Shown: positions 1 to 34,227 of the stretch, piece by piece
Layout of the letters: every line of letters starts with the position of its first letter
How positions within the stretch are numbered: the first letter of the stretch is position 1
Assembly (NCBI GenBank): GCA_021802505.1
Contig: JAJZXE010000004.1
Location: 1-48,187 of the forward strand
Length of the DNA: 48,187 nt
DNA from: Nanobdellota archaeon
GTDB taxonomy: Archaea; Nanobdellota; Nanobdellia; Parvarchaeales; Parvarchaeaceae
Direction: 5' to 3'
The notes under the pieces: model-generated
Databases searched by the model: none
What the model was told of the DNA's origin: nothing
The model's input: only the letters and a program-made list of their open reading frames with translations
Program-made: the position numbers and the translations under genes

Positions 1-1
1 C

Positions 2-565
2 GCATTTAAAACACACATAATCGTCTTTAATTCGTGCTACTTTTCAAATGCGACGCTGGCAGTCAATAATTCCGGTCCATTCTGTCTGGCGAATAACGGC
101 GTAAACATAATCATAAACAAGTCCATACTGTCCTATTACCCGAATTCTACCCTTGAAATACACAACCTGAACGTCTCCGCTTCACCGTTTTCCTTTTTGG
201 ACGGCAAGCCATTGATTACGGTGTGGAACGAGCCTTCGTACGTCGCTGCGGATTCCTATTCATTTCTGACAATTCCAGACACGTTCAAAGTGCACATGGA
301 ATATAATGCGACCGTTGATACCTCTTTCATAGTAATGACCAATCAGCAGTATGTAAACTGGGTCACAACTAAAAGCCTGAAGAATAACTACGTTTCAATA
401 GAAAGTGGCAGGAATATCTCTTCATGGTTCAATCTCAGTACAGGATGTGCGGGCTACGTCGCAGTTATCGAATCGTTAAACGGCCAGGCGGTGGCAATCC
501 ACCCCGATGAAAAGATACTTTATGACCCCGCGAGTGCGCCGACCGGAGCGTGTATTTCACCTTAA
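2..565 (+). CDS. hypothetical secreted/surface protein, 5' end outside the window
   Basis: Frame 2 is open from nt 2, with no stop before the TTG at 197 used by the ORF track, so the CDS enters from upstream. Many N-x-S/T sequons (NAT, NNS, NKS, NST, NVS, NIS, NLS). No family recognised. Confidence 0.45.
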   Translation, partial: AFKTHIIVFNSCYFSNATLAVNNSGPFCLANNGVNIIINKSILSYYPNSTLEIHNLNVSASPFSFLDGKPLITVWNEPSYVAADSYSFLTIPDTFKVHMEYNATVDTSFIVMTNQQYVNWVTTKSLKNNYVSIESGRNISSWFNLSTGCAGYVAVIESLNGQAVAIHPDEKILYDPASAPTGACISP

Positions 566-610
566 ATAAATACAGTCAATTTTAAATCCTTTAAGATCAT
601 AATAAATACC

Positions 611-1222
611 ATGGAAATTGATATTTTCGATGCGGTAAACGAGCTGAAAAGTTTTTATGAGGACAATTCTCCCCTCTCAAAGATAAGCGGTTTAATACCC
701 TACAAAAAAGTATCAATAGATCTGGAGTACAAGGACGGCGTGATAAGGGTGAGGGCACAGCATCCTCTTTCCATTAAGCTGTACAAACTATACAATATAT
801 TAATGCGCCTTTTCCTGGTTAAAGCGGTAAAGCTCACGGTGGACCTGATGGAAAACAACGGGCAGAAATCCGTTTCAAAACAGTTCGGTCCGGATGAAAA
901 TATTGATCCCATAATAGAGGATCTTAAGGGTATACCGCATGAAAGCATAACCGACATAATAGTCGATACGGATTACTTTAAGATAGTCGAAACGCAGGAC
1001 ATGAGCGACAACGTTTCAATAATGCTCAAGAAGACCGGCAAAAAAGAGCTTTTTAAGAGCCTTTCAAACTATCTGTTTCCGTTCATAAACATGCCTGCGA
1101 ATGAATCGTTAAAGGAAGAGATGAGTTTTACAAAAGACAGCGATCAGTTGACGGTTGACGTTTCAATGAAAATAGACGGATCACCGATGGGAATAAAATC
1201 GAAAAAAGTGAAATTGATTTAG
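611..1222 (+). CDS. hypothetical protein, first gene of the KaiC-like/GTPase/Roadblock operon
   Basis: 203-aa ORF with an ATG start. Its stop lies 1 nt before the next ORF. No motif recognised. Confidence 0.5.
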   Translation: MEIDIFDAVNELKSFYEDNSPLSKISGLIPYKKVSIDLEYKDGVIRVRAQHPLSIKLYKLYNILMRLFLVKAVKLTVDLMENNGQKSVSKQFGPDENIDPIIEDLKGIPHESITDIIVDTDYFKIVETQDMSDNVSIMLKKTGKKELFKSLSNYLFPFINMPANESLKEEMSFTKDSDQLTVDVSMKIDGSPMGIKSKKVKLI

Positions 1223-1223
1223 A

Positions 1224-1892
1224 ATGGAAGGGATAAAAACGGGTTTTAAGTCGTTTGATGAATCAACGGGAGGGCTGGATTACAGAAAGACATATGCCCT
1301 TTTCGGCAATAAGGAATCAGGAAAGGAGCAGTTCCTATACAACTTAGTGCAGTCCGCCCTGGCATCAAAAAATGCGATCGTATACGTTCTTACTTCCAAA
1401 TCTTATTCTGATCTTATAAATGAATTCAATGTGAGGAACATACCGATAAACCAGTATCTCGGAAAGGACTTCAAGATACTTGACGATTTCAGCAGAACTA
1501 ACTCACCGAATGCGATGGACAACTCATATGCAAAGATACTTAACGGGCCTTTGGATCTTACAGGTTTGTCAGTCTCATTGTCGGGCGTAAACAGTGATTT
1601 TATAAAAGACGCAAAAACGGTCATAAACATCTTTGATAATCTTTCAAATCTGCTTATGTATAACAACCCTCTGACGGTCTATCGTTTTCTCCAGTTTATC
1701 TGCGGTAAGGCCAAACTCGCCGGTGTTACAACCATATTCTCGGTTGATACAGCAATGCATACCCCTGATATTATAGAAACCATAAAGAACTTATCGGATG
1801 CAATCATAGATCTAAAACTTGAAAATGGCAAAAGATCTTTCAGATTATCTGGAACCAGCAGAGAGGTGCTTGAATTCAAAGAGCTGGAATGA
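1224..1892 (+). CDS. KaiC/RAD55-like RecA-superfamily domain protein with non-canonical Walker A
   Basis: N-terminus IKTGFKSFDESTGGL...YALFGNKESGKEQF follows the KaiC/RAD55 layout. Walker A is GNKESGKE (GxxxxGK-E). Walker B-like VINIFD. Confidence 0.7.
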   Translation: MEGIKTGFKSFDESTGGLDYRKTYALFGNKESGKEQFLYNLVQSALASKNAIVYVLTSKSYSDLINEFNVRNIPINQYLGKDFKILDDFSRTNSPNAMDNSYAKILNGPLDLTGLSVSLSGVNSDFIKDAKTVINIFDNLSNLLMYNNPLTVYRFLQFICGKAKLAGVTTIFSVDTAMHTPDIIETIKNLSDAIIDLKLENGKRSFRLSGTSREVLEFKELE

Positions 1893-1925
1893 TATATTTA
1901 AAAGCATTCAGCTCTACTTATTAAT

Positions 1926-3164
1926 ATGGTCGAATACAGAGGATTGGACGGCATACCTGAAGATGTAGACCCGTACTTTGGGATAGCAAAACTGGATGAG
2001 CAATTGAAGGGGATTCCCTCAAAGAAGATCGTACTAATCTCCGCTTCACCTTCGGTGGGCAACGAAGTGTTCGGTTATCAGATAATACACAAAAATATAA
2101 TTTCAAATGTAAAAGTTCTTGTGTTTCTTAACAGGACCTCACCGCAGTCCTACCTTACGGAGATGAAGGAATACGATTTTCCCTCCAATGACAACATGGT
2201 GATAATCGATGCGTACAGCGGCATAACCGGGATAAAATCCGATGAAACCGATCATATAAAAGTCATAAGCAACCCGTATGACAGGGAAGAGGTAAAATCA
2301 AAGATTCTTAGCGAGCTTAAAAACGGATACGGTCTGCTTGTGATGGATTCTCTCTCATTGCTGGCGGATTTCTTCGATTTTCAGTACGTGAATTCACTTA
2401 TCAAAGAAATTCAAAAAATATCCGAAGAAAAAGATGCGGCGGCAGTTCTGCTGTTCACAGATTGGGGTTATGATAAGGACAATGTCGACAAAATCATCTC
2501 AGAAGTCAATTCGGTAATAGAAGTAAAGGGCATAGAAAAAAGAGTCATCTTCGGCCAGTATTTTGCCGTGCTTAACTGTGACTGGGTTAAGGCGAACGAC
2601 GGCTTCTCCTCCGTTCTTTTTAAATCGATGAAACCTGGAGGAATAAAGGTGTACTTCCCAAAGATACTCGTTACCGGCCCTACGGATGCGGGTAAAAGTT
2701 CGTTTATACACAGCGCCTCGCACAATGCAGTTAGCGTTGATAAATTGGGCGGGACGATTGCATTGGACCACGGCAGTGTCGATTTTGAAGGGTATAAAGC
2801 GGATTTATTTGGTACGCCCGGGCAGGAAAGATTTGATCCCCTGCTTAAAATGCTGGGGGGAGAAGCAATCGGCGTTTTCCTAGTCATAGATTCAACAAAA
2901 CCCGAGCAGTTCCCCAGAGCGATAGAAATGCTTAGAAAAACGGAAACGTACGGCCTACCGGTTGTTGTAATCGCGAATAAGGCGGATCTTAAAGGGGCAT
3001 TGAAGAAAGAAGAGATACGGGCCAAATTACACCTTGATTCAGCGATGGCATTAATACAGACATTTGCGGAGGATTTATCCAAGGTGGATCCGAACGAACC
3101 AACAAAATTAAAAGATGAAGGGGTGCATGAAGCTTTGTCGGTGCTTTTCAAACAGCTGACATAA
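1926..3164 (+). CDS. fusion protein: degenerate KaiC-like domain plus C-terminal small GTPase (COG2229 / MglA-CvnD-like)
   Basis: The N-half has a KaiC-like layout (GIAKLDEQLKG...VLISASPSVGNEVF, Walker B-like LLVMDS). The C-half has G1 GPTDAGKS, G3 LFGTPGQERF and G4 NKAD. Confidence 0.75.
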   Translation: MVEYRGLDGIPEDVDPYFGIAKLDEQLKGIPSKKIVLISASPSVGNEVFGYQIIHKNIISNVKVLVFLNRTSPQSYLTEMKEYDFPSNDNMVIIDAYSGITGIKSDETDHIKVISNPYDREEVKSKILSELKNGYGLLVMDSLSLLADFFDFQYVNSLIKEIQKISEEKDAAAVLLFTDWGYDKDNVDKIISEVNSVIEVKGIEKRVIFGQYFAVLNCDWVKANDGFSSVLFKSMKPGGIKVYFPKILVTGPTDAGKSSFIHSASHNAVSVDKLGGTIALDHGSVDFEGYKADLFGTPGQERFDPLLKMLGGEAIGVFLVIDSTKPEQFPRAIEMLRKTETYGLPVVVIANKADLKGALKKEEIRAKLHLDSAMALIQTFAEDLSKVDPNEPTKLKDEGVHEALSVLFKQLT

Positions 3165-3194
3165 TTATTTAAATAGGTAATTTATAAATTAAAT

Positions 3195-3569
3195 ATGGCT
3201 ACAAAATCTGAACAATTAAAGAGCACTTTGCAGAGATTAAGCACGGTAGGAGGAATAAAAGCTTCCGCTGTGATTTCCGCCAACGGTTTGCCGATGGTTT
3301 CACTTATGCCGGAGGATGTAGATCCGAATACGTTTGCAGCTATGCTTGCCTCAATGGTAGGTTCGGCAGAAACGGCGTTGAAATCCCTGGGAGCAAAAAA
3401 TACACTGGACAGGGTAGTTGCGGAGTCGAAGGATATAAGGGTAGTTGCGGTTCAGGCCGGTACTGATGCAATACTTACAATAATGATCGATCCAAATACA
3501 AACTACGGACTGATACTTCTGGAGTCAAAAAAGGCTTCCGATGAGATTGCAAACATAATGAAGCAGTGA
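3195..3569 (+). CDS. Roadblock/LC7 domain protein (MglB/CvnB-like)
   Basis: 124 aa. The pattern LQRLSTVGGIKASAVISANGLPMVS...DPNTFAAMLASMVGSAE is typical of Robl_LC7. It lies 30 nt downstream of the GTPase gene. Confidence 0.75.
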   Translation: MATKSEQLKSTLQRLSTVGGIKASAVISANGLPMVSLMPEDVDPNTFAAMLASMVGSAETALKSLGAKNTLDRVVAESKDIRVVAVQAGTDAILTIMIDPNTNYGLILLESKKASDEIANIMKQ

Positions 3570-3692
3570 TCGATATCTCAACTGTATTTTAGAATTTTTT
3601 TATTCTGTATCTGTCGGCTTTCTATTTGAGAGAAAAACCTTTGAAATCGGAGAGAAACACCGTGAAATATAAGATAAAAATAAACAACTACC

Positions 3693-3965
3693 TCAACTTT
3701 TAAGCGTCTTTAGAATCTCATCCACCTTATCTATGTTATCCTGTTTGATGGCCTCTATTATTGCGAGTTTGTTCTTTTTCCTGATTTTTACCTTTTCACC
3801 GTTCTTTGTTATCTTCAGCTGTTCTTTGTCGAAGTTTACCGGTAGTTTTTCATTTTTTGGCTGAAAATCTTCATGCTCTTCCTTTCTTGTATACTTTACT
3901 TCGTATCCGTTGAATTTTATTTCTTTTACAGCCTTGCTCTGATGATGTTTATACCATTCTTCCAT
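3693..3965 (-). CDS. hypothetical Lys/Glu-rich small protein
   Basis: 90-aa ORF with an ATG start, convergent with the Roadblock gene. No motif recognised. Confidence 0.35.
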   Translation of the reverse strand: MEEWYKHHQSKAVKEIKFNGYEVKYTRKEEHEDFQPKNEKLPVNFDKEQLKITKNGEKVKIRKKNKLAIIEAIKQDNIDKVDEILKTLKS

Positions 3966-4045
3966 GGAATATATCGTAGTTTCATAGATTTAAACATTTT
4001 GGATACGTATTTATAATTTATAAATTAAAGAATATAATGTTATGA

Positions 4046-4129
4046 GCTCAGGTTGCGTAACCTGGCATCGCGTAAGCCTGGAGAGCTTATGGGAGCAATC
4101 CCTTGAGGGTCCGAATCCCTCCCTGAGCG
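4046..4129 (+). tRNA. tRNA-Ser (anticodon GGA)
   Basis: Folded by hand. Acceptor GCTCAGG/CCTGAGC, 3-bp D stem, anticodon stem TAAGC/GCTTA, loop CTGGAGA. Long variable arm (GGGA-GCAA-TCCC), T arm GAGGG-TCCGAAT-CCCTC, discriminator G. An A/T-rich TATA-like stretch lies upstream. Confidence 0.85.
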
Positions 4130-4238
4130 AGTTTGTGGAGTATTAATAACGTTTATTGGTAAGGTATACTTTTTCAAAAGAATTAAAATGCATGCGGAAT
4201 CCAAGCCGAATTATATCGTATTATAAGGAGGGCTAAGT

Positions 4239-4781
4239 TTATCTGACCCTAAATTCGCTGGCTTTACTCAGTATTTTCAGTTTCTGCAGGATATACCTCG
4301 ATAAAACAAGTATCGCCATGCCAGCGAATAGTGTTATTATCCCGTATATCGGTATTTTAAACAGTAAAAAGGCAACGGCTATACCCAGTGCTGGGGGGTG
4401 CTCGCTGTCCGTTTCAAACAGCAATAAAGAGACCATGAAAATGGTTATGCCAGCTGCTATGTAAAAACTTATTGCTTCCGAAAGCAAAAATCCCATATAA
4501 CCGAACAGGCCTGCTATCAGATAGCTTTTTATAAATCTCGTCTTTTTTGCGGCCTTAGAATACGGCATTAAAAAGAGGATAAAAGCACTGCTCGCGAAAG
4601 AAGTGAAGATCAGTGCCGAGGCTCCGCTTACCTCCTTTATATCAAAATTTATTTCGTGCAGAATAAATATTAGCAGTACTACGATAAATGATGTCAGTAA
4701 GATGGGGATTACGATGTTATTGCGGTTTAACTTGTGTTTTGTTCTCCTGTATTCTTTGTGGCTGAATTCATTTTTCTTCAT
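4239..4781 (-). CDS. HPP-family integral membrane protein
   Basis: Multi-TM 180-aa ORF containing SEHPPALG, which resembles the HPP-family signature. Overlaps the thrS stop by 14 nt. Confidence 0.5.
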   Translation of the reverse strand: MKKNEFSHKEYRRTKHKLNRNNIVIPILLTSFIVVLLIFILHEINFDIKEVSGASALIFTSFASSAFILFLMPYSKAAKKTRFIKSYLIAGLFGYMGFLLSEAISFYIAAGITIFMVSLLLFETDSEHPPALGIAVAFLLFKIPIYGIITLFAGMAILVLSRYILQKLKILSKASEFRVR

Positions 4782-6678
4782 ACGGTAATCTTTCTTCTAT
4801 GTCCTTTACCCTGTCTTTTATGAATGATTCAACGTTTACGTTATATTCCGTCTTTCCTTTGCGGTTTCTGACCGCAATTGTTTTTTTCTCCTCTTCTTTG
4901 TCCCCGATAATTATTATGTATGGGATTTTTTCAAGCTGGCCCTTTCTTATCTTGTATTCTAATGTGCCATTCTCCAGTTCTCCTTCAACCCGTATTCCGC
5001 CGGATTTTATTTTTTTGATGACCTCCAAAGCGTATTTATTGTTTCTTTCGGTGATAGTAAATACCTTGGCCTGAACAGGGGAAAGCCAGAACGGCAGTTC
5101 TCCCTTTGAATTCTCAAGTATTATGCCCATAAATCTTCCAATCGTGCCCATTATTGATCTGTGGATAACGATGGGGAAGTGTTCCTTATTGTCGCTGCCG
5201 ATATACTTTGCAGCAAATCTCACCGCGAGATTAAAATCAAGCTGTATTGTTGAAACCGCGTATGCGTCCTCCTGCCTGCCGCTGAAATCCAGTACGTAGA
5301 TATCTATTTTCGGGCCATAAAACGCACCGTCCCCCTCCTTCACTTCATAGGTATATCCTCTTTTTTCAAGCACATCTTTCAGTATCGCTTCCGCCTTGTC
5401 CCAGAGAGAATCATCCCCTATCCTTTTTTCCGGCCTCGTCGCCAGTTTCATGATTGGCTTCAGATCAAATGGTTTGTAGGTATCATCCATTATATCAAAC
5501 ATCCGCATAATCTCGCCTTCTATCTGTTCCTCTGCTACATAAACATGCGAGTCATTCTGTTCCATCAATCTTGTTCTTAGTAACCCATCAAGCGTTCCCT
5601 CCAGTTCATATCTGTGTAAAAACCCGTAATCCGACAGGCGCATGGGCAGTTCTCTGTAGCTTCTTGTTTTTGACCTGAAAAGCAGCGCCGAGAAAGGGCA
5701 ATTCATTGGCTTAAGTCCGTATTCCTCGTCTGATTCGAAAGGAGTCACCCTAAACATGTTCTCCTTATACTTGTCAAAATGGCCGCTTATTTTCCAGAGG
5801 TCTATTTTGGCTATGAGCGGAGTTATTATCTCCGAATATTCGTACTTTTTATCGAGTTCTCTCGCAAATTTCAATAGTTCATTATAGACTATAGTTCCGT
5901 TTACAGTGAAAAAAGGAGAACCCGGCGATAATTCAGAAAATTCGAACAAACCAAGTTCCTTTCCTATTTTTTTATGGTCGTGCTCTTTTCTTTCCTCCGT
6001 TAATTTAAGATATTCTTCCAGTTCCTGCTTAGACGGGAAACTTACGCCGTATATCCTTGTCATCACTTCTCTTTTGCTGTCTCCTCTCCAGTATGCCCCC
6101 GCCACCTTCAGTAATTTTACAGCCCCGATATAACCTGTAGAGGGTATATGCGGGCCCCTGCACAGGTCGTAGAATTCTCCGTTCCTGTATATGCTGAGAT
6201 TACCGGTTGCTCCTTCTATTATTTCCAGTTTGAATCTGTTTTCCTTTAAGAGCTCTTTTGCCTCCTCTTTTGATATGTCTTTTCTTTCAAAAGCAATGTC
6301 TTCTTTTATTATCTTCCCGATTTCTTTTTCTATTTTTTCCAGATCGTTATCCCCTGCCTTCAAGTTATACAGATCGTAGTAAAATCCTTCGTCTATTGCA
6401 GGGCCTATACCGAGCAGTGCTTCCGGATAAAGTCTCTTGACAGCGACTGCCAGGACATGTGCGGACGAATGCCAAAACACCTTTTTACCCTCTTTGTCAG
6501 CAAATGTATAAAATTTTATCTCGCCGTCTTCATTGATGACCCTGGATAAATCAACCAATTTTCCGTTTATTTCGGCTACCAGTACACCTTTTAAGGGTAT
6601 CCCAAAAGACTTTGCTATCTCTTTTGCGGTTTTACCCTCTCCGAATTCTCCTTCTTTTCCTTTATAGATTATCTTCAT
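4768..6678 (-). CDS. thrS: threonyl-tRNA synthetase, with bacterial/eukaryal-type N-terminal TGS and editing domains
   Basis: 636 aa. TGS-like N-terminus, HxxxH (WHSSAHVLA) and CxxxH (CRGPH) editing-domain motifs, class II core, C-terminal anticodon-binding domain. Confidence 0.95.
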   Translation of the reverse strand: MKIIYKGKEGEFGEGKTAKEIAKSFGIPLKGVLVAEINGKLVDLSRVINEDGEIKFYTFADKEGKKVFWHSSAHVLAVAVKRLYPEALLGIGPAIDEGFYYDLYNLKAGDNDLEKIEKEIGKIIKEDIAFERKDISKEEAKELLKENRFKLEIIEGATGNLSIYRNGEFYDLCRGPHIPSTGYIGAVKLLKVAGAYWRGDSKREVMTRIYGVSFPSKQELEEYLKLTEERKEHDHKKIGKELGLFEFSELSPGSPFFTVNGTIVYNELLKFARELDKKYEYSEIITPLIAKIDLWKISGHFDKYKENMFRVTPFESDEEYGLKPMNCPFSALLFRSKTRSYRELPMRLSDYGFLHRYELEGTLDGLLRTRLMEQNDSHVYVAEEQIEGEIMRMFDIMDDTYKPFDLKPIMKLATRPEKRIGDDSLWDKAEAILKDVLEKRGYTYEVKEGDGAFYGPKIDIYVLDFSGRQEDAYAVSTIQLDFNLAVRFAAKYIGSDNKEHFPIVIHRSIMGTIGRFMGIILENSKGELPFWLSPVQAKVFTITERNNKYALEVIKKIKSGGIRVEGELENGTLEYKIRKGQLEKIPYIIIIGDKEEEKKTIAVRNRKGKTEYNVNVESFIKDRVKDIEERLPYEEK

Positions 6679-6848
6679 TTATTTTCTATTAATCTCAGTA
6701 TATTAATAATTAGCTGTTAATTTATGAGCAGTTTACTCAGAAGCAATTATTTGCCGGTTTTCTTTGCTTTATACCGCCTTTTCTGGTATTTTTGAGCGTG
6801 CTATAGTTTATATTCTATGAATTAAAATATTAATCTATTAAATGCGTC

Positions 6849-7034
6849 GTGAAAGTTATGGTTTTAAACAGAAAAGGAATGGAGCTGGGCATAACAATCA
6901 TAATAATCATAGTAATAGCGCTCGCATTACTCGTTATTTTACTGTTCCTTTTAAAAACGGGAATATTCTCGCCGGTAACCAGTCTTCTTCATTCAAGCCC
7001 CAATACAAGTTCTATAAACAATAGTCTGCCTTGA
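6849..7034 (+). CDS. small single-pass membrane protein (hypothetical)
   Basis: 61-aa ORF with a GTG start and alternative ATGs at 6858 and 6879. Contains a strongly hydrophobic stretch (ITIIIIIVIALALLVILLFLL). Confidence 0.3.
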   Translation: MKVMVLNRKGMELGITIIIIIVIALALLVILLFLLKTGIFSPVTSLLHSSPNTSSINNSLP

Positions 7035-13209: not shown

Positions 13210-14295
13210 ATGGTAATGGATTTGCTTGTGGAAAGCGCATTGAAAGCCAGTAGGGAGGGGGGTATCAACGAACCTTTATTCAACCAGGCTCTTATAAAAG
13301 TTATAGGGGTCGGCGGCGGCGGAAATAATATGGGCAATTGGCTCTTTAAAAAAGGAGTCAAGGGCGCTGAAGTAATTCTGGCCAATACGGACCAGATACA
13401 GCTCAATGCAAGGAATGGTGATAAAAAGATCCTTATCGGAAAGGAGCTTACGAAGGGATTAGGTGCGGGCGGTTTTCCTGAAAAAGGAAGGATGGCTGCA
13501 GAAGAATCCTCAAGGGAAATAAAGGATTCGCTCAGAGGAGCGGATTTGGTATTTGTATGTGCAGGCCTAGGAGGAGGAACGGGTACCGGTGCTGCGCCTG
13601 TCGTCGCAAAAATTGCAAAGGACATGGGCGCAATCGTAATAAGTACGGTAACGATGCCTTTCAAGACTGAAAGAAAAAGAGTAGAATCCGCTGAATCGGG
13701 TTTGGAAGAATTAAGGAACAGCTCCGACACTGTTATAGTGATAGACAATAACAGGCTCGTAAGCATGGCCGGGAACCTTCCGATAGACCAGGCATTTAAC
13801 GTTGCCAATGAGGTCGTTGCAACCATGATAAAGGGAATAGTTGAGACTATCTCGGACGCAAGCGCATTGGTTCACCTTGATTTTGCTGATATAAAGGCAA
13901 TAATGAACAAGGGCGGCGTTTCTGTGATCGGAATCGGTGAAACAGACGCTTCAGATTCCAGAGTAACCGAAGTAGTAAGAAGAGCCTTGAATAATCCTCT
14001 TCTTGACGTAAGTTACAAAGGCGCGAAGGGAGCACTGATACACATCTCCGGAGGGCCGGATTTAACCCTTGCAGAAGTCAACCAGATCGGAGAAATGGCG
14101 ACTCAATCTTTGGACCCTGATGCAGTAGTCATATGGGGCGCAAAAGTCGATGAGTCGTTGTCCGGAAAGCTGAGGGTCATGACAATAATTACCGGAGTGA
14201 GTTCTCCGTATTTATTGGGACCTGAGGAGATAAACACCCTCTCCAAGACAACTGGCGCAATAAACCAGGAACTTGGCATAGAGATATTAAAGTAA
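13210..14295 (+). CDS. ftsZ: cell division GTPase FtsZ (paralog 1)
   Basis: IKVIGVGGGGNN and the tubulin signature GGGTGTGAAP. 361 aa. Confidence 0.95.
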   Translation: MVMDLLVESALKASREGGINEPLFNQALIKVIGVGGGGNNMGNWLFKKGVKGAEVILANTDQIQLNARNGDKKILIGKELTKGLGAGGFPEKGRMAAEESSREIKDSLRGADLVFVCAGLGGGTGTGAAPVVAKIAKDMGAIVISTVTMPFKTERKRVESAESGLEELRNSSDTVIVIDNNRLVSMAGNLPIDQAFNVANEVVATMIKGIVETISDASALVHLDFADIKAIMNKGGVSVIGIGETDASDSRVTEVVRRALNNPLLDVSYKGAKGALIHISGGPDLTLAEVNQIGEMATQSLDPDAVVIWGAKVDESLSGKLRVMTIITGVSSPYLLGPEEINTLSKTTGAINQELGIEILK

Positions 14296-18121: not shown

Positions 18122-18132
18122 CCAAAGTTAAA

Positions 18133-18205
18133 TGGGCCCAGGGAGATTCGAACTCCCGGCCTTCTGCGTGTAAGGCAGACGTCATAACCACTAGACCATA
18201 GGCCC
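18133..18205 (-). tRNA. tRNA-Val (anticodon TAC)
   Basis: The reverse complement folds by hand. Acceptor GGGCCTA/TGGGCCC, anticodon stem TCTGC/GCAGA, loop CTTACAC, T arm GGGAG-TTCGAAT-CTCCC, discriminator A. Confidence 0.85.
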
Positions 18206-18259
18206 ATAGGAATGATAATATGCTAAAGTTATTTAAATAATTATAAATCACTAAATAGA

Positions 18260-18852: not shown

Positions 18853-18926
18853 GGGCTCGTAGCTTAACTCGGTAGAGCATCCGGCTCTTAACCGGATTGT
18901 TGCGGGTTCAAATCCCGTCGAGCCCA
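18853..18926 (+). tRNA. tRNA-Lys (anticodon CTT)
   Basis: Folded by hand. Acceptor GGGCTCG/CGAGCCC, D stem GCTT/GAGC, anticodon stem TCCGG/CCGGA, loop CTCTTAA, T arm GCGGG-TTCAAAT-CCCGT, discriminator A. Confidence 0.9.
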
Positions 18927-19170
18927 CACTATGTGCGGGGTAATGCCATCTCCGAGAAATTTGATTACTTCTTGTAAAAAAGTAAGTTTATACCTTTCAT
19001 TTTCTTTTTTAAAGTACAGTAACGTATGGGAAAAGGAACTGGTTTAATATCTGAGCTAATCCTCGCCATCGTAACATTAATCATAATTCCCAGCTTTTTA
19101 ACTATTTTGGGATGTCCTACCAAAACACTCAAGCTTTTAACATAGGAATGTCTAATAATACCTATAAAAA

Positions 19171-28118: not shown

Positions 28119-29246
28119 ATGGATGATATGCAAACGGATAATTCACTTAGCTTAGGAATAAAAAGCGCGAAGTTTGATGCAAGCAAGACAAAGGAATTTG
28201 ATAAGTCTCTTGAGGAATTGATAGCATCAAGAAGGGCAAATATCAAAGTGGTAGGAGTGGGCGGATCGGGTAATAATACCCTCAGCAGAATGTTTGAAGT
28301 GGGGATAAAGGGCGCAGAATTTATAGCCGTAAACACGGACGCAGCTGATTTATTATGCACACCCTCCGACAAAAAGATACTCATAGGAAAGGAACTTACA
28401 AACGGACTGGGTGCGGGCGCAGACCCGTCTGTTGGTGAAGCCGCTGCAAAGGAACAGGAGCAGGAGATAAAGGAAGCATTGCAGGGCGCAGACCTTGTCT
28501 TTATCTGCTGCGGTATGGGGGGAGGAACGGGTACCGGTGCTGCTCCGATAACCGCTGCCGTCGCAAAGAAATTGAATGCTCTTACCATCGCGGTTGTAAC
28601 CCTGCCGTTCAAGGCTGAAGGAAAAAGAAGGATGAACGCCGCTTTAAACGGGGTAGAAAAATTAAAAAATACTGTTGATACTCTTATAACGGTTCCAAAT
28701 GAAAAGCTCATGGCGATAGCGCCGGGGCTGCCTTTACCAATCGCTTTAAAGATAGCAGATGACGTCCTTACGAACGCGGTAAAAGGTATAACGGAGCTTA
28801 TAACAAAACCGGGACTGATAAACGTCGACTTTGCCGATGTTAAAAGAATAATGTCGAACGGCGGAGTTGCTCTTATAGGGACAGGAGAAAGCGATGCGAA
28901 GGACAAAAAACTTGAGACCGTAGTTGAAAAAGTATTGAACAATCCTCTGATAGATGTTGATGTATCCTCTGCAAGAGGCATGCTTATCGATGTCAGCGGC
29001 GGGCCGTCATTGACGCTGGAAGAGGCAAACAAACTAGTCGATCTTATAGGCCAGAAATTACCTGAGGATATAAACATAATATGGGGCGCACATATATTCC
29101 CGGATCTTAAAAACACTGTAAAGGTTCTTGCCATAATAACGGGAGTAACCTCAAAACAGATAAGCGGTAAATCAATCGCCGAGGATCAGCAGCTCAAGGA
29201 GAAAAGAGAGGTAGAGGACGAGCTCGGCATAACTTTCCTGAGTTAA
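28119..29246 (+). CDS. ftsZ: cell division GTPase FtsZ (paralog 2)
   Basis: IKVVGVGGSGNN and GGGTGTGAAP. 375 aa. Followed by secE, as in the conserved euryarchaeal arrangement. Confidence 0.95.
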   Translation: MDDMQTDNSLSLGIKSAKFDASKTKEFDKSLEELIASRRANIKVVGVGGSGNNTLSRMFEVGIKGAEFIAVNTDAADLLCTPSDKKILIGKELTNGLGAGADPSVGEAAAKEQEQEIKEALQGADLVFICCGMGGGTGTGAAPITAAVAKKLNALTIAVVTLPFKAEGKRRMNAALNGVEKLKNTVDTLITVPNEKLMAIAPGLPLPIALKIADDVLTNAVKGITELITKPGLINVDFADVKRIMSNGGVALIGTGESDAKDKKLETVVEKVLNNPLIDVDVSSARGMLIDVSGGPSLTLEEANKLVDLIGQKLPEDINIIWGAHIFPDLKNTVKVLAIITGVTSKQISGKSIAEDQQLKEKREVEDELGITFLS

Positions 29247-30258: not shown

Positions 30259-32676
30259 ATGAAAGATCCGGGCGGAAAAATAAATAAAGAGGAAGAATTT
30301 AAGAAAGTCTCTTCGAGTAAGAACGGTCTGTCGCAAAGGGAAGCAGACAAAAGATTAGAGCAGTACGGTTACAATGAAATTGCGGATAAAAAAGCGAATC
30401 CCGTTAAAAAATTCCTTTCAAAGTTCTACGGCCCCATACCGATAATGCTTTTCATTGTGATAGCCCTGTCGTTTTTTCTGGGAAAATACATAGATGCGTA
30501 CATAGTCATAGGTCTTTTGCTTTTTAACGGCATAGCCGGTTTTCTCGAGGAATTCAAAGCGGACAATACACTCGAACTGCTGAAAAACAGGCTGTCTGTT
30601 AACGTCAATGTGGAAAGAGACGGTAACTGGAAAAAAATGCCGGCAAAATTCCTTGTACCGGGGGATGTCATAAGGGTAAGGCTTGGTGACATAGTTCCTG
30701 CGGATTGTCTCATCATCGAGGGAGATTATCTTTCGGTGGACCAATCAATGCTTACCGGGGAATCCCTGCCGGTCGATAAAAAGGAAGGAGAAATTATATT
30801 CTCCTCCTCAACGGTAAGGGAAGGAGAAGCGACCGCACTGGTGCTGAAGACCGGAAACAAAACCTCGTTCGGAAAAACAGCGGATCTGGTCAGGATCGCC
30901 TCCGGCAGAATACACTTGGAGGATGACATACTGCGCCTGATAAAATACCTTATCTACATTGATCTTGCACTCATAGCTGTTGTTTTCATTGTTTCATTTC
31001 TTTCAGACATCAGCATCCTTACCATAATACCATTTTCTCTTTTGATCCTTTTGGCATCAGTACCAGTAGCCTTGCCCGCCGCCTTTACGGTCGCGATGGC
31101 TTACGGAACCGAAAGGCTTTCTTCAAAGAACATACTCGTGACCAAGCTGGAAGCCATTGAGGAGGCATCTACTATGAATGTCGTGTGTCTGGATAAAACA
31201 GGGACTATCACCGGCAACCAGCTGTCGGTTTCCGAGCCTTTTAACTACGGTAAATTCTCCAGGGAGGAAGTCCTGTTTTACGGCGCTATCGCATCAAGAA
31301 GGGAGGATAACGATGAGATAGACACCGCGATAATAGACGGATTTAAGAAATATGACAGCAAAAAACTGGAATCAGGATATAAACTCGTGAAATTCATACC
31401 TTTTAGCCCAGCCACAAAGCTTTCGCAGGCCGACGTCGTATTAAACGGTAAAAAGATATCAGCGATAAAAGGTTTCCCTTCAATAGTAATGAAGAGATGC
31501 ACATTAGATTCCGGCGAAACAAAGAAAATAAACGCGAAGATAAAGGAATTCTCCATAAAGGGTTTCCGTACGATCGCTGTCGCCGCTAAATTAAGCGGTA
31601 AGAAGGACTGGTCTTTCATCGGTGTAATACCATTAAATGACAAGCCGAGAGAAGACAGTAAACAGCTTATAGAGGAGTTAAAGTCGCTGGGCATAAAGGT
31701 AAAAATGCTTACGGGTGACAACATAGATACGGCGAAAGAGGTAGCCACCGAAGTAGGAATAGGGGATAAGATCTTGGATGTGAAATCTCTGGAAGGGCTG
31801 GATGAAAAGACCATGTCAAAGCTTGTGATAGAGCACGACGGCTTTGCCGGTATTTTTCCCAAGGATAAATACACCATAGTGAAGGCTCTGCAGGATTCGG
31901 GTTATCACGTCGGGATGACTGGTGACGGGGTCAATGATGCACCGGCTTTGAAACAGGCCGAAGTCGGTATCGCCGTCTCCAATGCCACTGATGTTGCAAA
32001 GAGTGCCGCGACCATCGTTCTGACGTCTGCAGGAATAGAGCCGATAGTCAATGCGGTGAGGGAGAGCAGGTCAATATTCGAGAGGATGATAAGCTACACC
32101 TTAAACAAAGTTACCAGGATATTCCAGATAGCTTTTTTTCTTTCCGTAGCTTTTGTTATTTTAAGGTTTCTTCCTATTAGGACTATCCAGCTTATTTTAA
32201 TGATATTTATAAACGATATCGGCAGCATCACTCTCTCTACAGACAAAGAAAGCTATTCCAAGAAACCGGACACGTGGGACATAAAAGCCATACTCTACGC
32301 AGCCGCGATATTCGGCATAATGGCGATAGCCGAGGTAGCAGTGCTTGCTTATCTGGGATTAAGCTATTTCCACCTGAGTCATACGGAATTTGAGACATTT
32401 ATGTTCGCCGCATTTATCTTTTCAATAGAAGCACTGCTTCTGTCAATACGTTCCAGGAGGAGATTTTTCCACTCAAGGCCGAGCATTCCGGTCATGATGC
32501 AGATAGTATCCGCCGTCGCAATAACCTGGGTAATAGCAAATTTCGGGATTCTGATGCAGAGTATAAGCAGTTATTACCTGATTTTCATAGGCGTGTTCGC
32601 GGTGGCATTTCTTCTGGTAACCGATCTTGTAAAAGTCTTCCTATACAAAAAGGACAAGGAATTCTCCCTTCTTTAA
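30259..32676 (+). CDS. P-type ATPase, plasma-membrane H+-ATPase-like (type III)
   Basis: CLDKTGTITGN, MLTGDN, MTGDGVNDAPALKQAEVGIAV, and N-terminal GLSQREADKRLEQYGYNEI. Confidence 0.93.
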   Translation: MKDPGGKINKEEEFKKVSSSKNGLSQREADKRLEQYGYNEIADKKANPVKKFLSKFYGPIPIMLFIVIALSFFLGKYIDAYIVIGLLLFNGIAGFLEEFKADNTLELLKNRLSVNVNVERDGNWKKMPAKFLVPGDVIRVRLGDIVPADCLIIEGDYLSVDQSMLTGESLPVDKKEGEIIFSSSTVREGEATALVLKTGNKTSFGKTADLVRIASGRIHLEDDILRLIKYLIYIDLALIAVVFIVSFLSDISILTIIPFSLLILLASVPVALPAAFTVAMAYGTERLSSKNILVTKLEAIEEASTMNVVCLDKTGTITGNQLSVSEPFNYGKFSREEVLFYGAIASRREDNDEIDTAIIDGFKKYDSKKLESGYKLVKFIPFSPATKLSQADVVLNGKKISAIKGFPSIVMKRCTLDSGETKKINAKIKEFSIKGFRTIAVAAKLSGKKDWSFIGVIPLNDKPREDSKQLIEELKSLGIKVKMLTGDNIDTAKEVATEVGIGDKILDVKSLEGLDEKTMSKLVIEHDGFAGIFPKDKYTIVKALQDSGYHVGMTGDGVNDAPALKQAEVGIAVSNATDVAKSAATIVLTSAGIEPIVNAVRESRSIFERMISYTLNKVTRIFQIAFFLSVAFVILRFLPIRTIQLILMIFINDIGSITLSTDKESYSKKPDTWDIKAILYAAAIFGIMAIAEVAVLAYLGLSYFHLSHTEFETFMFAAFIFSIEALLLSIRSRRRFFHSRPSIPVMMQIVSAVAITWVIANFGILMQSISSYYLIFIGVFAVAFLLVTDLVKVFLYKKDKEFSLL

Positions 32677-32682
32677 TTCTAC

Positions 32683-33507
32683 ATGAAACTTAAAAATCAC
32701 ACCATATTCATTATTTCTTTTCTGCTTTCCTTCCTGGTTTATTTCTTCCTTCACGGATTTGAATATGTTTATTATGCCGCTGTTATCGGTGTTTTTTCTT
32801 CCTTTTTGCTTATTTCATACACTTCAAAAAAATATTATTTTTATTGTGCATTTGCAGTAATCCTGGCGTTCATTTTTTTAAATTTGATGCCGCTGCATTT
32901 TTTACTTCAGTTGCTTTCTTTGAGTTTGTTGGTCCAGGCTCTTTTTATAAAAAAATTATCCGTAAAAACTCTGCATCTCAACAGGGAAATAGAACTAAGA
33001 AGGGATCTGGTTCAGATAATAATCGGGGGGATATCCCTTTTAGTGCTGTTTCTGCTTGACCGATTACCGCTTGTCCTGCTTGTTTTGTTTGGTATGTTAT
33101 CCGCGCACGTAATGCTTGTTTATGGCGGGAAGCTAAATAAATTTACCGAGCTGCTGGAAAGAGAGGGGGTGATCTTCGGCTCCGGCGCCATGTTTATGGC
33201 GGTGGGTTCTCTTCTTTTATTGGGTTTTATAACCCGGTTTAATCTTCTTTTTCTCGGCCTGTTTGCCCTTCTTATCTCCGATCCGGTGGCGACGGTTGCC
33301 GGTTTAAGCGGGGGCAAAAAACCGGGTAAGAAGTCGATAGCAGGCAGCGCCGCATTTTTTGCATCCTTAGCCATTCCAGGTGTGCTGTTGTTCGGTTTAT
33401 TCGGTGCATTATTCGCATTTGTACTCACGCTCGCGGAACGCTTTAGTCCCATAGACGATAACCTGTTCATTCCCATTGTTTCGCTTCTTCTCTCCCTTAC
33501 AGTGTAG
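32683..33507 (+). CDS. polytopic membrane protein, dolichol/phytol kinase-like (CTP_transf_1-like)
   Basis: SDPVATVAGLSGGKKPGKKSIAGSAAFF resembles the GDxxAxxxG...K(S/T)xEG motif of dolichol kinase and CDS-family enzymes. Confidence 0.45.
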   Translation: MKLKNHTIFIISFLLSFLVYFFLHGFEYVYYAAVIGVFSSFLLISYTSKKYYFYCAFAVILAFIFLNLMPLHFLLQLLSLSLLVQALFIKKLSVKTLHLNREIELRRDLVQIIIGGISLLVLFLLDRLPLVLLVLFGMLSAHVMLVYGGKLNKFTELLEREGVIFGSGAMFMAVGSLLLLGFITRFNLLFLGLFALLISDPVATVAGLSGGKKPGKKSIAGSAAFFASLAIPGVLLFGLFGALFAFVLTLAERFSPIDDNLFIPIVSLLLSLTV

Positions 33508-33537
33508 TTTAAATATTACGGCAACAATATAAAGCAA

Positions 33538-34173
33538 ATGTCGGGATTATTTGCGAGCGAAGTCTTCATAGAGTTTTCCACACTGCTGATACTCGCTTTA
33601 ACCGTTCCGTTAGCCGCATTAATGACCTACAAATCTTTTAAGAAAAAAGGAAAAAGCCAGTTTTACTGGTCCGTAGGACTGTGGCTGTTTACGGCGGGTG
33701 TTCTTTTGGAGGTGTTTTTCTCGTTCAACATATACAATGCGGTACTTATTAAAATTTACCTTGCAGCGGTTGCGTTTCTCGTGAGTTTTCTTGCATTGGG
33801 TTCCGTATCGCTTCTTAAAAACAGGCTGTTTTACAGTTATTACGGCGTATTTTTTATTCTTTCAGGGATATTTGTCGTTTACTCGTTGATTGTTTCCAAT
33901 ATCGGAAACATACTTACAAATTACGTCGTATTCGGCATTTTACCGCTGCTGGTCGTGATATCCTCCTCAATAATGACATTTCCCGCAGCAATAATCCTTA
34001 TATTGGTAGCGGCGCTTTCATACAGAAAAAAACCGAATAAAAAAATGCTGTCTATAATAGCAGGAGTCATAATAGTCAGCATAGCCGGCTCTCTTTACAT
34101 TGCGCATTTTCCCGCATTTTTGTACTATTCCGAGTTCATAGGTATTTTACTGCTTTGGCTCGGTTTTATTTAA
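33538..34173 (+). CDS. hypothetical polytopic membrane protein
   Basis: 211 aa with multiple hydrophobic helices. Confidence 0.4.
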   Translation: MSGLFASEVFIEFSTLLILALTVPLAALMTYKSFKKKGKSQFYWSVGLWLFTAGVLLEVFFSFNIYNAVLIKIYLAAVAFLVSFLALGSVSLLKNRLFYSYYGVFFILSGIFVVYSLIVSNIGNILTNYVVFGILPLLVVISSSIMTFPAAIILILVAALSYRKKPNKKMLSIIAGVIIVSIAGSLYIAHFPAFLYYSEFIGILLLWLGFI

Positions 34174-34227
34174 TCATCTAAGGAATAGTGACGGCTAGGG
34201 CATGTATTTAAACGGTTGCAGTTTTAA

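Follow-up and report, generated by a model that had tools for sequence, protein, structure and literature searches.

Ras-like GTPases with Roadblock/LC7 partners and KaiC-like proteins are two of the main candidate signalling systems of archaea, and, to our knowledge, almost none of either kind has a known function. Here we analyse a cluster of four open reading frames (ORF1–ORF4, positions 611–3569) in which the two are physically joined. The cluster lies in a 48,187-nt stretch of DNA from a Nanobdellota archaeon (GenBank assembly GCA_021802505.1, contig JAJZXE010000004.1, positions 1–48,187 of the forward strand), hereafter the window, which denotes the whole stretch analysed. Within it, ORF3 fuses a KaiC-like domain to a small GTPase of the MglA type, ORF2 encodes a second KaiC-like protein, and ORF4 encodes a Roadblock protein. 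The cluster combines a GTPase–Roadblock pair with KaiC-superfamily domains, parts whose pairwise links had already been anticipated. The copy in the window is an ordinary member of a large uncharacterised archaeal family.

Several described systems resemble parts of this cluster. In Myxococcus xanthus and Thermus thermophilus, the GTPase MglA carries Thr in place of Asp in its G3 motif (TxPGQ) and is encoded next to the Roadblock protein MglB, a GTPase-activating protein (GAP) that binds as a dimer. In the actinobacterial conservons (CvnA-D) and the mycobacterial Mfp system, an MglA-family GTPase with a GTPGQ motif (CvnD/MfpB) and a Roadblock protein (CvnB/MfpD) are encoded in one operon. Roadblock dimers act on small GTPases, those of the MglA family among them, as platforms and GAPs (PMC4316618; PMC3747258). 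MglA Groups 2–5 are defined by a GTPGQ G3 motif, in which Thr replaces the near-universal Asp, and they have a Thr beside the G2 Thr at the position of the arginine finger of Group 1; the G1–G2 insertion of bacterial members is missing from archaeal ones, and the archaeal proteins of Group 4 are close to Arf/Sar (PMC4316618). Among KaiC-like proteins, ArlH is a non-hydrolysing regulator whose nucleotide and phosphorylation state governs its hexamerisation and its docking on the ArlI ATPase (PMC8978795), and inactivated KaiC domains have been proposed as parts of archaeal signalling hubs in work cited in PMC5847659.

The four genes and the domains discussed below are as follows (window positions).

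611–1222, + strand: ORF1, 203 aa, ATG start, first gene of the cluster
1224–1892, + strand: ORF2, 222 aa, ATG start, stand-alone KaiC-like (RecA-fold) member of the DUF7504 family, predicted to be inactivated
1926–3164, + strand: ORF3, 412 aa, ATG start, KaiC-like domain fused to a small GTPase
1926–2633, + strand: ORF3 N-terminal domain, aa 1–236, predicted inactivated KaiC/ArlH-like RecA-fold domain of the DUF7090 family
2043–2066, + strand: degenerate P-loop of ORF3, ASPSVGNE, aa 40–47, with no Walker-A Lys or Ser/Thr
2634–3164, + strand: ORF3 GTPase domain, aa 237–412, Ras-superfamily small GTPase of the MglA Group 2–5 / archaeal type
2676–2699, + strand: G1 of ORF3, GPTDAGKS, aa 251–258
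2805–2834, + strand: G3 of ORF3, LFGTPGQERF, aa 294–303
2976–2987, + strand: G4 of ORF3, NKAD, aa 351–354
3195–3569, + strand: ORF4, 124 aa, ATG start, Roadblock/LC7 (MglB-like) protein

The ORF list reproduced exactly the coordinates, the strand and the intergenic gaps (1, 33 and 30 nt for ORF1–ORF2, ORF2–ORF3 and ORF3–ORF4) given in a preliminary description of this DNA, which had been made from the sequence alone.

Domains of the module and their described relatives

The preliminary description placed a P-loop GTPase in aa 240–412 of ORF3 and quoted its G1, G3 and G4 motifs. Both statements held. The motifs lie at aa 251–258, 294–303 and 351–354, and aa 245–409 scored above the cut-offs of Pfam Arf (E 1.5e-11, 44.5 bits, cut-off 22.3), Pfam Ras (E 2e-8, 34.5 bits, cut-off 21.6) and NCBIfam small_GTP TIGR00231 (E 1.6e-15, 57.3 bits, cut-off 42.5); all the domain calls for the cluster held up in profile, structure-database and fold searches. 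All the hallmarks of the Ras superfamily are present, namely G1 GxxxxGK[ST], the G2 Thr, G3 xxxGQ and G4 [NT]KxD. Across 62 diverse homologues, G251, G256 and K257 of G1, T277 of G2, N351 and K352 of G4, and G296, P298, G299, Q300, R302 and F303 of G3 (GTPGQERF) are invariant, T297 is conserved in at least 90%, and the motif residues are highly conserved in a larger set of 118 homologues also. The GTPase domain, with its invariant catalytic Q300, looks active and is, judging by motif states, the sole intact nucleotide switch of the module.

In its motifs the domain resembles Group 2–5 MglA: the G3 is GTPGQ, the G2 region (family consensus GTTIALDHG, GGTIALDHG in the window) has no Arg, K257 and T277 are 20 residues apart with no G1–G2 insert, and a Roadblock gene adjoins. 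MglA proteins are single-domain (~160–200 aa), whereas the GTPase here makes up the C-terminal 176 aa of a 412-aa protein. The nearest relatives in a sequence search of the PDB (phmmer) were Rab11 and Arl3 (E ~1e-8 to 1e-9), which agrees with the remark that archaeal Group 4 MglA is Arf/Sar-like (PMC4316618). By its motifs, the domain fits the sequence criteria of Group 4, of which it is a candidate member. Group 4 MglA is archaeal, comes mostly from methanogen lineages, and shares with the domain the GTPGQ motif, the absence of the insert and the Arf/Sar likeness; in the published survey (PMC4316618), however, its members are single-domain GTPases without conserved neighbours, whereas ours is a fusion with two.

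The module shares with bacterial MglA/MglB the Thr in G3, the adjoining Roadblock gene and a link to pili, in that MglA/MglB control type IV pili and pilus genes occur at two loci of the present family. It differs in having GTPGQ rather than the TVPGQ of Group 1, in lacking an intrinsic G2 Arg finger and the bacterial G1–G2 insert, and in the fusion of the GTPase to a pseudo-KaiC domain, with a second pseudo-KaiC protein and no partners of the RomR/RomX type. The conservons and the Mfp system share with it the GTPGQ GTPase and Roadblock pair, and some versions of the module in DPANN archaea carry membrane HAMP sensor proteins. In contrast to our module, which is archaeal, conservons have no KaiC-like modules. 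Searches with Pfam found no HisKA, HATPase or DUF742 domain in ORF1–ORF4, in line with the earlier remark that sensor-kinase and DUF742 partners are missing. A hidden conservon was also considered and rejected, as the HAMP and small proteins of the related DPANN clusters contain no CvnC/DUF742 or kinase domain. Since neither a histidine kinase (CvnA) nor DUF742 (CvnC) was detected in these proteins, the module is not a conservon, although the clusters with HAMP, Roadblock and GTPase genes resemble one.

The N-terminal half of ORF3 had been assigned a KaiC/RAD55-type layout, and the DUF7090, FlaH and Foldseek matches agree on this. Residues 19–222 matched Pfam DUF7090 (E 1.9e-8, 34.7 bits, cut-off 27); KaiC PF06745 remained under its cut-off (E 1.5e-4, 21.7 bits, cut-off 26.6), and the NCBIfam models for FlaH (NF004723, E 4.4e-10, 39.5 bits) and ArlH/FlaH (NF052589, 17.7 bits) remained far under theirs (194 and 215, respectively). 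The top PDB sequence match was FlaH 4yds (E 1e-3). An AlphaFold2 (AF2) model of ORF3 built from a 62-sequence alignment had a mean predicted local confidence (pLDDT) of 88.5 and a predicted template-modelling score (pTM) of 0.84. When the N-terminal domain of this model was compared with known structures by Foldseek, it matched PH0284 (2dr3; template-modelling score (TM) 0.82–0.83, root-mean-square deviation 2.6–2.9 Å) and FlaH (4yds, E 1.3e-14); it superposes on PH0284, FlaH and SSO2452 at TM 0.75–0.83, followed by KaiC and RecA.

The catalytic residues of this fold are missing. Opposite GDHGTGKS of FlaH, the P-loop of ORF3 reads ASPSVGNE; the family consensus is ASPGVENE (ASPxVxNE) with an invariant P42, and the Walker-A Lys and Ser/Thr are absent from all 62–118 homologues. 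The catalytic Glu pair after β2 is also gone, FLNRTS(P) standing opposite ITTEQT of FlaH, and the family alignment agrees. A Walker-B-like hhhhDSLS segment is kept. The N-terminal domain of ORF3 therefore looks dead as an ATPase, its catalysis predicted to be lost. The preliminary description of two "KaiC/RecA-like modules" was thus right as to fold and family, but both modules are predicted to be non-catalytic, with a degenerate Walker A and no catalytic Glu.

The linker between the N-terminal domain and the GTPase (KPGGIKVYxPKILVTGP) is nearly invariant. Together with the high pTM, this points to a fixed arrangement of the two domains, and the model suggests that they are rigidly placed in ORF3. 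In the clade of the window, the protein begins with a 13–14-residue extension (aa 1–14, window 1926–1967; pLDDT <50), which is lacking in the 399-aa orthologues of more divergent Parvarchaeota.

ORF2 matched DUF7504 (E 2.2e-9) and, in keeping with the KaiC layout ascribed to it earlier, KaiC PF06745 above its gathering score (E 1.1e-8, 35.1 bits, cut-off 26.6). Its P-loop, GNKESGKE, keeps the Lys of GEPGTGKT in SSO2452 and has Glu in place of Ser/Thr, and TSKS stands in place of the catalytic TEES segment. We sampled 13 members of the family from Parvarchaeota, ANME-2 (anaerobic methanotrophic archaea), a euryarchaeal metagenome-assembled genome (MAG) and DPANN-type loci. GK[ST] occurs in none of them: the Lys is lost in one and is followed by E, K, L or D in the others. 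The glutamate pair is likewise missing throughout (TSK/TDK opposite TEES). Canonical Walker A and post-β2 glutamates, which characterise KaiC, are thus absent from the families of both ORF2 and the ORF3 N-terminal domain. Profile–profile alignment of the two families by HHalign gave a probability of 99.7% (E 1.8e-26), indicating that ORF2 and the ORF3 N-terminal domain are paralogues. On its residues, ORF2 also looks dead, a predicted pseudo-ATPase of the inactivated KaiC ("iKaiC") kind.

ArlH/FlaH, PH0284 and SSO2452 share the RecA/KaiC fold with the two modules. Like ArlH, the latter probably regulate without hydrolysis, and they could assemble into rings and dock on partners. In contrast to both modules, which lack the key residues, ArlH has an intact, canonical Walker A, and it binds ATP and autophosphorylates. 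The scores for ArlH/FlaH equivalogs were below the NCBIfam cut-offs and no arl operon accompanies the cluster; no arl genes were found near it among the scanned ORFs of the window. Because of the state of the Walker A and catalytic Glu and the low NCBIfam scores, the module is not a bona fide KaiC or ArlH.

ORF4 is a Roadblock/LC7 protein, as had been expected, and scored 48.7 bits against Robl_LC7 PF03259 (E 6.2e-13, cut-off 23). Its best PDB sequence matches were Roadblock3 of Ca. Prometheoarchaeum (9jue, E 5e-12) and another Asgard Roadblock (7f8m, E 5e-8), followed by M. xanthus MglB (E 2e-5) and dynein LC7 (E 7e-4). No other gene of the cluster is as well conserved: ORF4 has 93–96% identity where ORF3 has 82–86%. 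The ORF4 family retains a D/N-G pair at aa 30–31, which matches the Asp-Gly pair, the only conserved feature reported for MglB coupled to Group 2–5 MglA (PMC4316618). By analogy, ORF4 is predicted to regulate the ORF3 GTPase, as a GAP or a platform. The pairing of a Roadblock protein with a small GTPase recalls Ragulator–Rag, TRAPP and the Asgard Roadblocks (9jue, 9jq8, 7f8m), the best solved relative of ORF4 is itself an Asgard Roadblock, and one related cluster includes a V4R (TRAPPC3-like) gene. Unlike those platforms, the module has no Rag-type GTPase–Roadblock fusion and no longin, and its GTPase is fused instead to a pseudo-ATPase domain of the RecA fold.

The 12 closest Parvarchaeum genomes (L001–L011 and L020; related loci are numbered L001–L033) have a gene for a protein of 136 aa after the Roadblock gene and on its strand (L003:7663-8073). 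This protein resembles low-molecular-weight phosphotyrosine phosphatases/ArsC (LMWPc E 1e-11), with the CX5R motif CKYNNSRS. The gene is lacking in L012–L019 and in the window, where 123 bp (3570–3692) separate ORF4 from the next gene. It could be a dispensable fifth member of the module.

Conservation and gene neighbourhoods

The fusion was sought in related genomes by a scan of one genome per species, which yielded 20 loci, all DPANN, and it was found in all of them and far beyond. The closest homologues of ORF3 (60–86% identity) come from MAGs of Ca. Parvarchaeota/Parvarchaeum of the ARMAN-4/5 type, and Ca. Parvarchaeum acidiphilum ARMAN-4 is among the 20 loci (ORF3, 82% identity). The window thus comes from a Parvarchaeum/ARMAN-like DPANN archaeon, a tiny organism of acid mines, and not from Thermoplasmata, the group in which the preliminary description had proposed to survey gene neighbourhoods. 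Every one of the 20 genomes has the order ORF1-ORF2-ORF3-ORF4, with near-identical lengths and 44–96% amino-acid identity, the fusion protein measuring 399–414 aa; a 90-aa gene on the opposite strand follows ORF4 in 19. When compared with two relatives, all four ORFs had nonsynonymous divergence (dN) of 0.04–0.12 and saturated synonymous sites. On this evidence, ORF1–ORF4 are real genes under strong purifying selection. Lineages of the Parvarchaeum type have very small genomes, and in the window the cluster is kept in a housekeeping region next to thrS, gatDE, ftsZ and the gene for aIF2-gamma.

Outside this clade, the architecture is widespread. Among the best 120 homologues of ORF3, 118 are full-length (380–426 aa), and matches at 41–49% identity over 95% of the length were found in Altiarchaeales, Nanoarchaeota, Woesearchaeota-labelled genomes, Methanosarcinales, ANME-2 and "Euryarchaeota". 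A search with a Methanosarcinales member as query returned 1,737 protein clusters at E<=1e-20; among the best-listed of them, which include Methanosarcinaceae and Ca. Methanoperedens, nearly all are ~390 aa long and carry the KaiC + Arf/Ras Pfam pair. The architecture is therefore a real fusion; it is not peculiar to one genome and belongs to a large archaea-wide family, which spans minimal DPANN episymbionts as well as the methane-cycling Methanosarcinales, ANME-2 and Methanoperedens. The homologues bear generic database names ("GTP-binding protein", "ATPase domain-containing protein", "small GTP-binding protein" and once "Circadian clock protein kinase KaiC"), and a practical outcome for the window is a proper annotation in place of generic or "circadian clock protein kinase KaiC" labels. 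In the literature, we found no description of the fusion, of the trio of genes discussed below or of the DUF7504/DUF7090 families, and no characterised function for the architecture, as the preliminary description had supposed; the survey of Makarova, Galperin & Koonin 2017 may list the fusion.

We examined 11 independent loci outside the Parvarchaeum clade (L021–L030, L032 and L033, with L022 and L023 counted as one). The Roadblock gene lies just 3' of the fusion in 10 of the 11, and in the eleventh the contig ends at that point; a pseudo-KaiC gene of the DUF7504/DUF7090 families lies within the cluster in 8. The order pseudo-KaiC, fusion, Roadblock is the same as in the window in L024 (euryarchaeal MAG), L025 (ANME-2), L028, L029 (Methanoperedens) and L030 (Methanosarcinaceae), and L028 has a homologue of ORF1 in addition to the trio. 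In ANME-2, Methanoperedens and Methanosarcinaceae, each gene of the trio directly adjoins or overlaps the next, and the core genes of Methanosarcinales probably form one operon. The four-gene order noted earlier thus stands for all 20 related genomes, but elsewhere the conserved core, as read from these loci, is a KaiC-like protein, the fusion and a Roadblock protein, and ORF1 is an add-on. With three core parts, the module is compact and reconstitutable, and it could be useful for learning the roles of archaeal MglA-type GTPases and pseudo-KaiC domains.

In DPANN-type loci, sensor genes sit between the fusion/Roadblock genes and the pseudo-KaiC gene. These are two small proteins, V4R, Roadblock and PAS in L022/L023, and Roadblock, FIST and HAMP in L026 and L027, with a further Roadblock and PAS in L026. 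Upstream, L022/L023, L026 and L027 each have a gene for a regulator of the TrmB family. In L033, the fusion is followed by genes for a small membrane protein, a Roadblock, an MBL-fold protein, HAMP, a substrate-binding protein, HAMP and a second Roadblock. L032 (Altiarchaeales) has the fusion and a Roadblock gene only.

Directly 3' of the fusion, three loci have a gene for a protein of ~106–110 aa (L021:7224-7544, L022:7214-7537, L033:7229-7561). These proteins resemble small multi-pass membrane proteins, as hinted by Pfam, and could serve to anchor the GTPase module in the membrane. The idea that they are divergent Roadblocks was rejected (HHalign 0.4%).

A CRS1_YhbY gene lies directly 3' of the trio in ANME-2 (L025:4789-7795), Methanoperedens (L029:6535-7679) and Methanosarcinaceae (L030:6672-6926). 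Two of these loci have S19e and PDCD5-like (dsDNA_bind) genes next, and the ANME-2 locus has L39e, L31e and eIF6 genes as well. This ribosomal-gene neighbourhood may be synteny without functional meaning.

A candidate GTPase switch and the alternatives

We consider it fairly probable that the module is a Roadblock-regulated GTPase switch on a non-catalytic KaiC-like scaffold. This view builds on the observations given above, namely which domains are present, the state of their motifs, the paralogy of the KaiC-like modules, the conservation of the genes and their linkage. A candidate GTPase switch on a KaiC-like scaffold was already the proposal of the preliminary description, and the domains, motifs, conservation and gene linkage support it. 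The PAS, FIST, HAMP, V4R, substrate-binding-protein and TrmB genes in or beside the DPANN-type clusters support a signalling role.

The steps that follow, which concern the contacts between the proteins, ORF4 as a GAP, the KaiC-like scaffold and the output, are inferred. KaiC/RecA-fold domains oligomerise via nucleotide-site interfaces. ORF2 and the N-terminal domain of ORF3 would associate in the RecA/KaiC style into a non-catalytic scaffold or docking platform. A dimer of ORF4 would bind the GTPase of ORF3 and set its nucleotide state, the part that MglB plays for MglA and, presumably, CvnB for CvnD; the GTP/GDP state would then control the assembly or partner binding of the KaiC-like platform. 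The GTPase switch would in this way replace the ATP-binding/autophosphorylation switch of ArlH/KaiC. ORF1 may be an accessory adaptor limited to Parvarchaeota and a sister lineage. A candidate for the output is a hexameric partner, for example an ATPase of the type IV pilus or archaellum type, or another envelope process.

Four observations weigh against this switch. Bacterial MglA structures are not among the best 60 PDB matches of the GTPase, Rab11 and Arl3 being closer. ORF2 retains the P-loop Gly and Lys and mostly the Walker-B Asp, and with these residues it might bind or slowly turn over nucleotide. L032 has no stand-alone pseudo-KaiC gene within 6 kb, so that this partner is either not obligatory or encoded elsewhere. 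Lastly, pilus genes occur at 2 of the 11 distant loci and not in the window, and the neighbours in Methanosarcinales are translation-related.

The first alternative is a regulator of a type IV pilus or archaellum-like filament, in which the platform would dock on a PilB/ArlI-type ATPase as ArlH does and the state of the GTPase would gate assembly. It spells out one particular output for the Roadblock-regulated switch, and we regard it as possible but rather unlikely. MglA and SofG act on PilB/PilT in Myxococcus. In L033, a run on one strand comprises small proteins, T2SSE and two T2SSF genes (L033:2121-5867), the fusion, the small membrane protein and the Roadblock, and in L021 T2SSE on the opposite strand and a KaiC gene (L021:1-1645), together with Ig-like/repeat proteins, lie upstream of the fusion. 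For the ORF3 N-terminal domain, FlaH/ArlH is the top match both in structure and in NCBIfam, a surface-type protein gene lies immediately 5' of ORF1 in 18 of the 20 Parvarchaeota loci, and KaiC-family and Roadblock (arCOG02603) genes have been reported in archaeal type IV pilus loci (Makarova et al. 2016, PMC4858521). However, just 2 of the 11 distant loci have pilus genes; none was found among the scanned ORFs of the 48-kb window, nor nearby in the Methanosarcinales, ANME and Methanoperedens loci.

Carried further, this reading leads to a speculative model to which we assign a low probability. The module would be a hybrid P-loop switch of a class not described before, an ArlH/KaiC-like ring adaptor that has lost its ATP switch and has been rewired to an attached MglA-type GTPase under Roadblock control, and a hetero-oligomer of ORF2 and ORF3 would dock on, or release, a hexameric pilus or secretion ATPase according to GTP state. 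If true, the module would be an ancient archaeal controller of polarity or surface organelles, kept in the smallest DPANN genomes and relevant to host attachment.

The second alternative is an ATP-driven timer or autokinase of the KaiC type, in which ORF2 and the ORF3 N-terminal domain would be working enzymes, as are cyanobacterial KaiC or ArlH/CirA-D, with the GTPase and the Roadblock as outputs. The KaiC Pfam matches, the Foldseek hits to KaiC, FlaH and PH0284, the conserved Walker-B-like hhhhDSLS, the P-loop Gly and Lys of ORF2 and the phosphatase-like gene after the Roadblock in 12 close relatives would all suit it. In contrast, the Walker-A Lys and Ser/Thr occur in none of the 62–118 ORF3 homologues and GK[ST] in none of the 13 ORF2-family members, and the Glu pair is lacking in both modules. 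Furthermore, the modules are of the single-domain kind, whereas KaiC is double-domain, and the cluster has no KaiB-like gene. We therefore judge a working timer to be improbable.

A GTPase module associated with translation or the ribosome is the third alternative, and a very improbable one. It would account for the CRS1_YhbY, S19e, PDCD5-like, L39e, L31e and eIF6 genes 3' of the trio in the three Methanosarcinales-type loci and for thrS and gatDE among the neighbours in the window. However, the GTPase is Ras/Arf/MglA-like and not of the translation-factor (TRAFAC) class, its GTP_EFTU match being partial, and Roadblock partners are typical of signalling GTPases. The ribosomal neighbours are limited to one order, and DPANN loci have sensor genes instead.

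An artefact of annotation, assembly or frameshifting behind the fusion or ORF1, or a chance juxtaposition of the clustered genes, can be practically dismissed, because the same architecture recurs in 20 genomes (399–414 aa) and in distant archaea (118 of the best 120 homologues, 1,737 clusters), the gene order is conserved and dN is far below the synonymous rate (dS).

The Roadblock-regulated GTPase switch on a KaiC-like scaffold, which we prefer, also opens the question of whether the GTPase–Roadblock pairing of eukaryotic Rag/Ragulator and TRAPP already controlled cell-surface machinery in archaea.

ORF1, transcription signals and the surrounding region

ORF1 had been called an unfamiliar 203-aa protein, and we too could assign neither a family nor a recognisable fold: it matched no Pfam, NCBIfam or PADLOC family, its profile had a best E of 0.86 against PDB sequences, and Foldseek found nothing in the PDB at E<=0.001 (best 1.1e-3, TM 0.14). 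The AF2 model is alpha/beta (pLDDT 83, pTM 0.77), and dN/dS is ~0.04. A profile search over 1.84 billion representative proteins returned 10 matches. Apart from a protein with 27% identity that occupies the corresponding place in L028 (E 4e-21), homologues are restricted to Parvarchaeota, and one distant homologue (L031) is not beside the trio. From this distribution, we treat ORF1 as a lineage-restricted accessory of the cluster. A Roadblock-like half in ORF1 was considered, as Foldseek gave weak matches to Roadblock/LAMTOR (probability 0.3–0.57); alignment to the Roadblock profile by HHalign had a probability of <1%, and we therefore do not claim this relationship. Anti-phage defence was considered for the cluster and rejected, since PADLOC models gave no defence family at E<=0.01 for any of the four proteins.

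Reading the sequence for transcription signals, we found three TATA-like boxes and an oligo-T run.

580–587, + strand: TATA-like box TTTTAAAT, 24 nt 5' of the ORF1 ATG
1897–1902, + strand: TATA-like box TTTAAA within ATATTTAAAA, 24 nt 5' of the ORF3 ATG
3168–3173, + strand: TATA-like box TTTAAA within ATTTAAATA, 22 nt 5' of the ORF4 ATG
3595–3601, + strand: oligo-T run (T7), 26 nt past the ORF4 stop codon

The ORF1 box is kept at the same distance in the sampled Parvarchaeota loci while the flanking intergenic sequence diverges. The ORF3 box is identical in four sampled close relatives and, in divergent loci, present at a similar distance as TTAAAT/TTTAAAT in four of six and missing in two. 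A TTTAAAT/TTAAAT box precedes ORF4 in all 11 loci compared. Within the window, TATA-like hexamers occur at -40..-15 of 9 of 27 trusted gene starts, versus 6% of random positions. The box at 580–587 is probably the promoter for ORF1-ORF2, whose mRNA would then have a short leader or none. Transcription in archaea terminates at oligo-T runs, and the T7 run after ORF4 is a probable terminator. As the boxes 5' of ORF1, ORF3 and ORF4 are conserved, the cluster of Parvarchaeota may consist of three tandem transcription units (ORF1-ORF2, ORF3 and ORF4) with leaderless or short-leader mRNAs. The preliminary description spoke of an operon; four genes on one strand with short gaps are indeed present, but the boxes of ORF3 and ORF4 may mean three units.

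Upstream of ORF1, a gene cut by the start of the window (2–565, + strand; full length L003:4009-4644) encodes a protein of ~211 aa that begins with a hydrophobic anchor or signal and contains many N-x-S/T sequons. To judge from these features, it is likely a glycosylated surface protein, and it is weakly similar to a transglutaminase N-terminal domain (E 5e-4). The gene precedes ORF1 in 18 of the 20 Parvarchaeota loci, being undetected in L016, where too little upstream sequence is available, and in L017, and it is absent at L028. Downstream of ORF4 are the 90-aa gene (3693–3965, - strand), tRNA-Ser(GGA) (4046–4129, + strand), which was the sole Rfam match over positions 1–7000, and an HPP-family gene (4239–4781, - strand).

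Housekeeping genes around the cluster in the window comprise thrS, gatD/gatE, two ftsZ genes and those for aIF2-gamma, CTP synthase, a P-type ATPase and the HPP membrane protein. Three successive ORFs without a Pfam family (274, 211 and 296 aa; 32683–35118, + strand) lie 3' of the P-type cation ATPase gene (30259–32676). Further tRNA genes are tRNA-Val(TAC) (18132–18206, - strand) and tRNA-Lys(CTT) (18853–18927, + strand). A DDE transposase ORF (41245–42321, - strand; DDE_Tnp_1 E 4e-9) may mark an insertion sequence amid the housekeeping genes. The two FtsZ paralogues lie <15 kb apart (13210–14295 and 28119–29246, both + strand), each with Tubulin and FtsZ_C domains (E ~1e-47 each).

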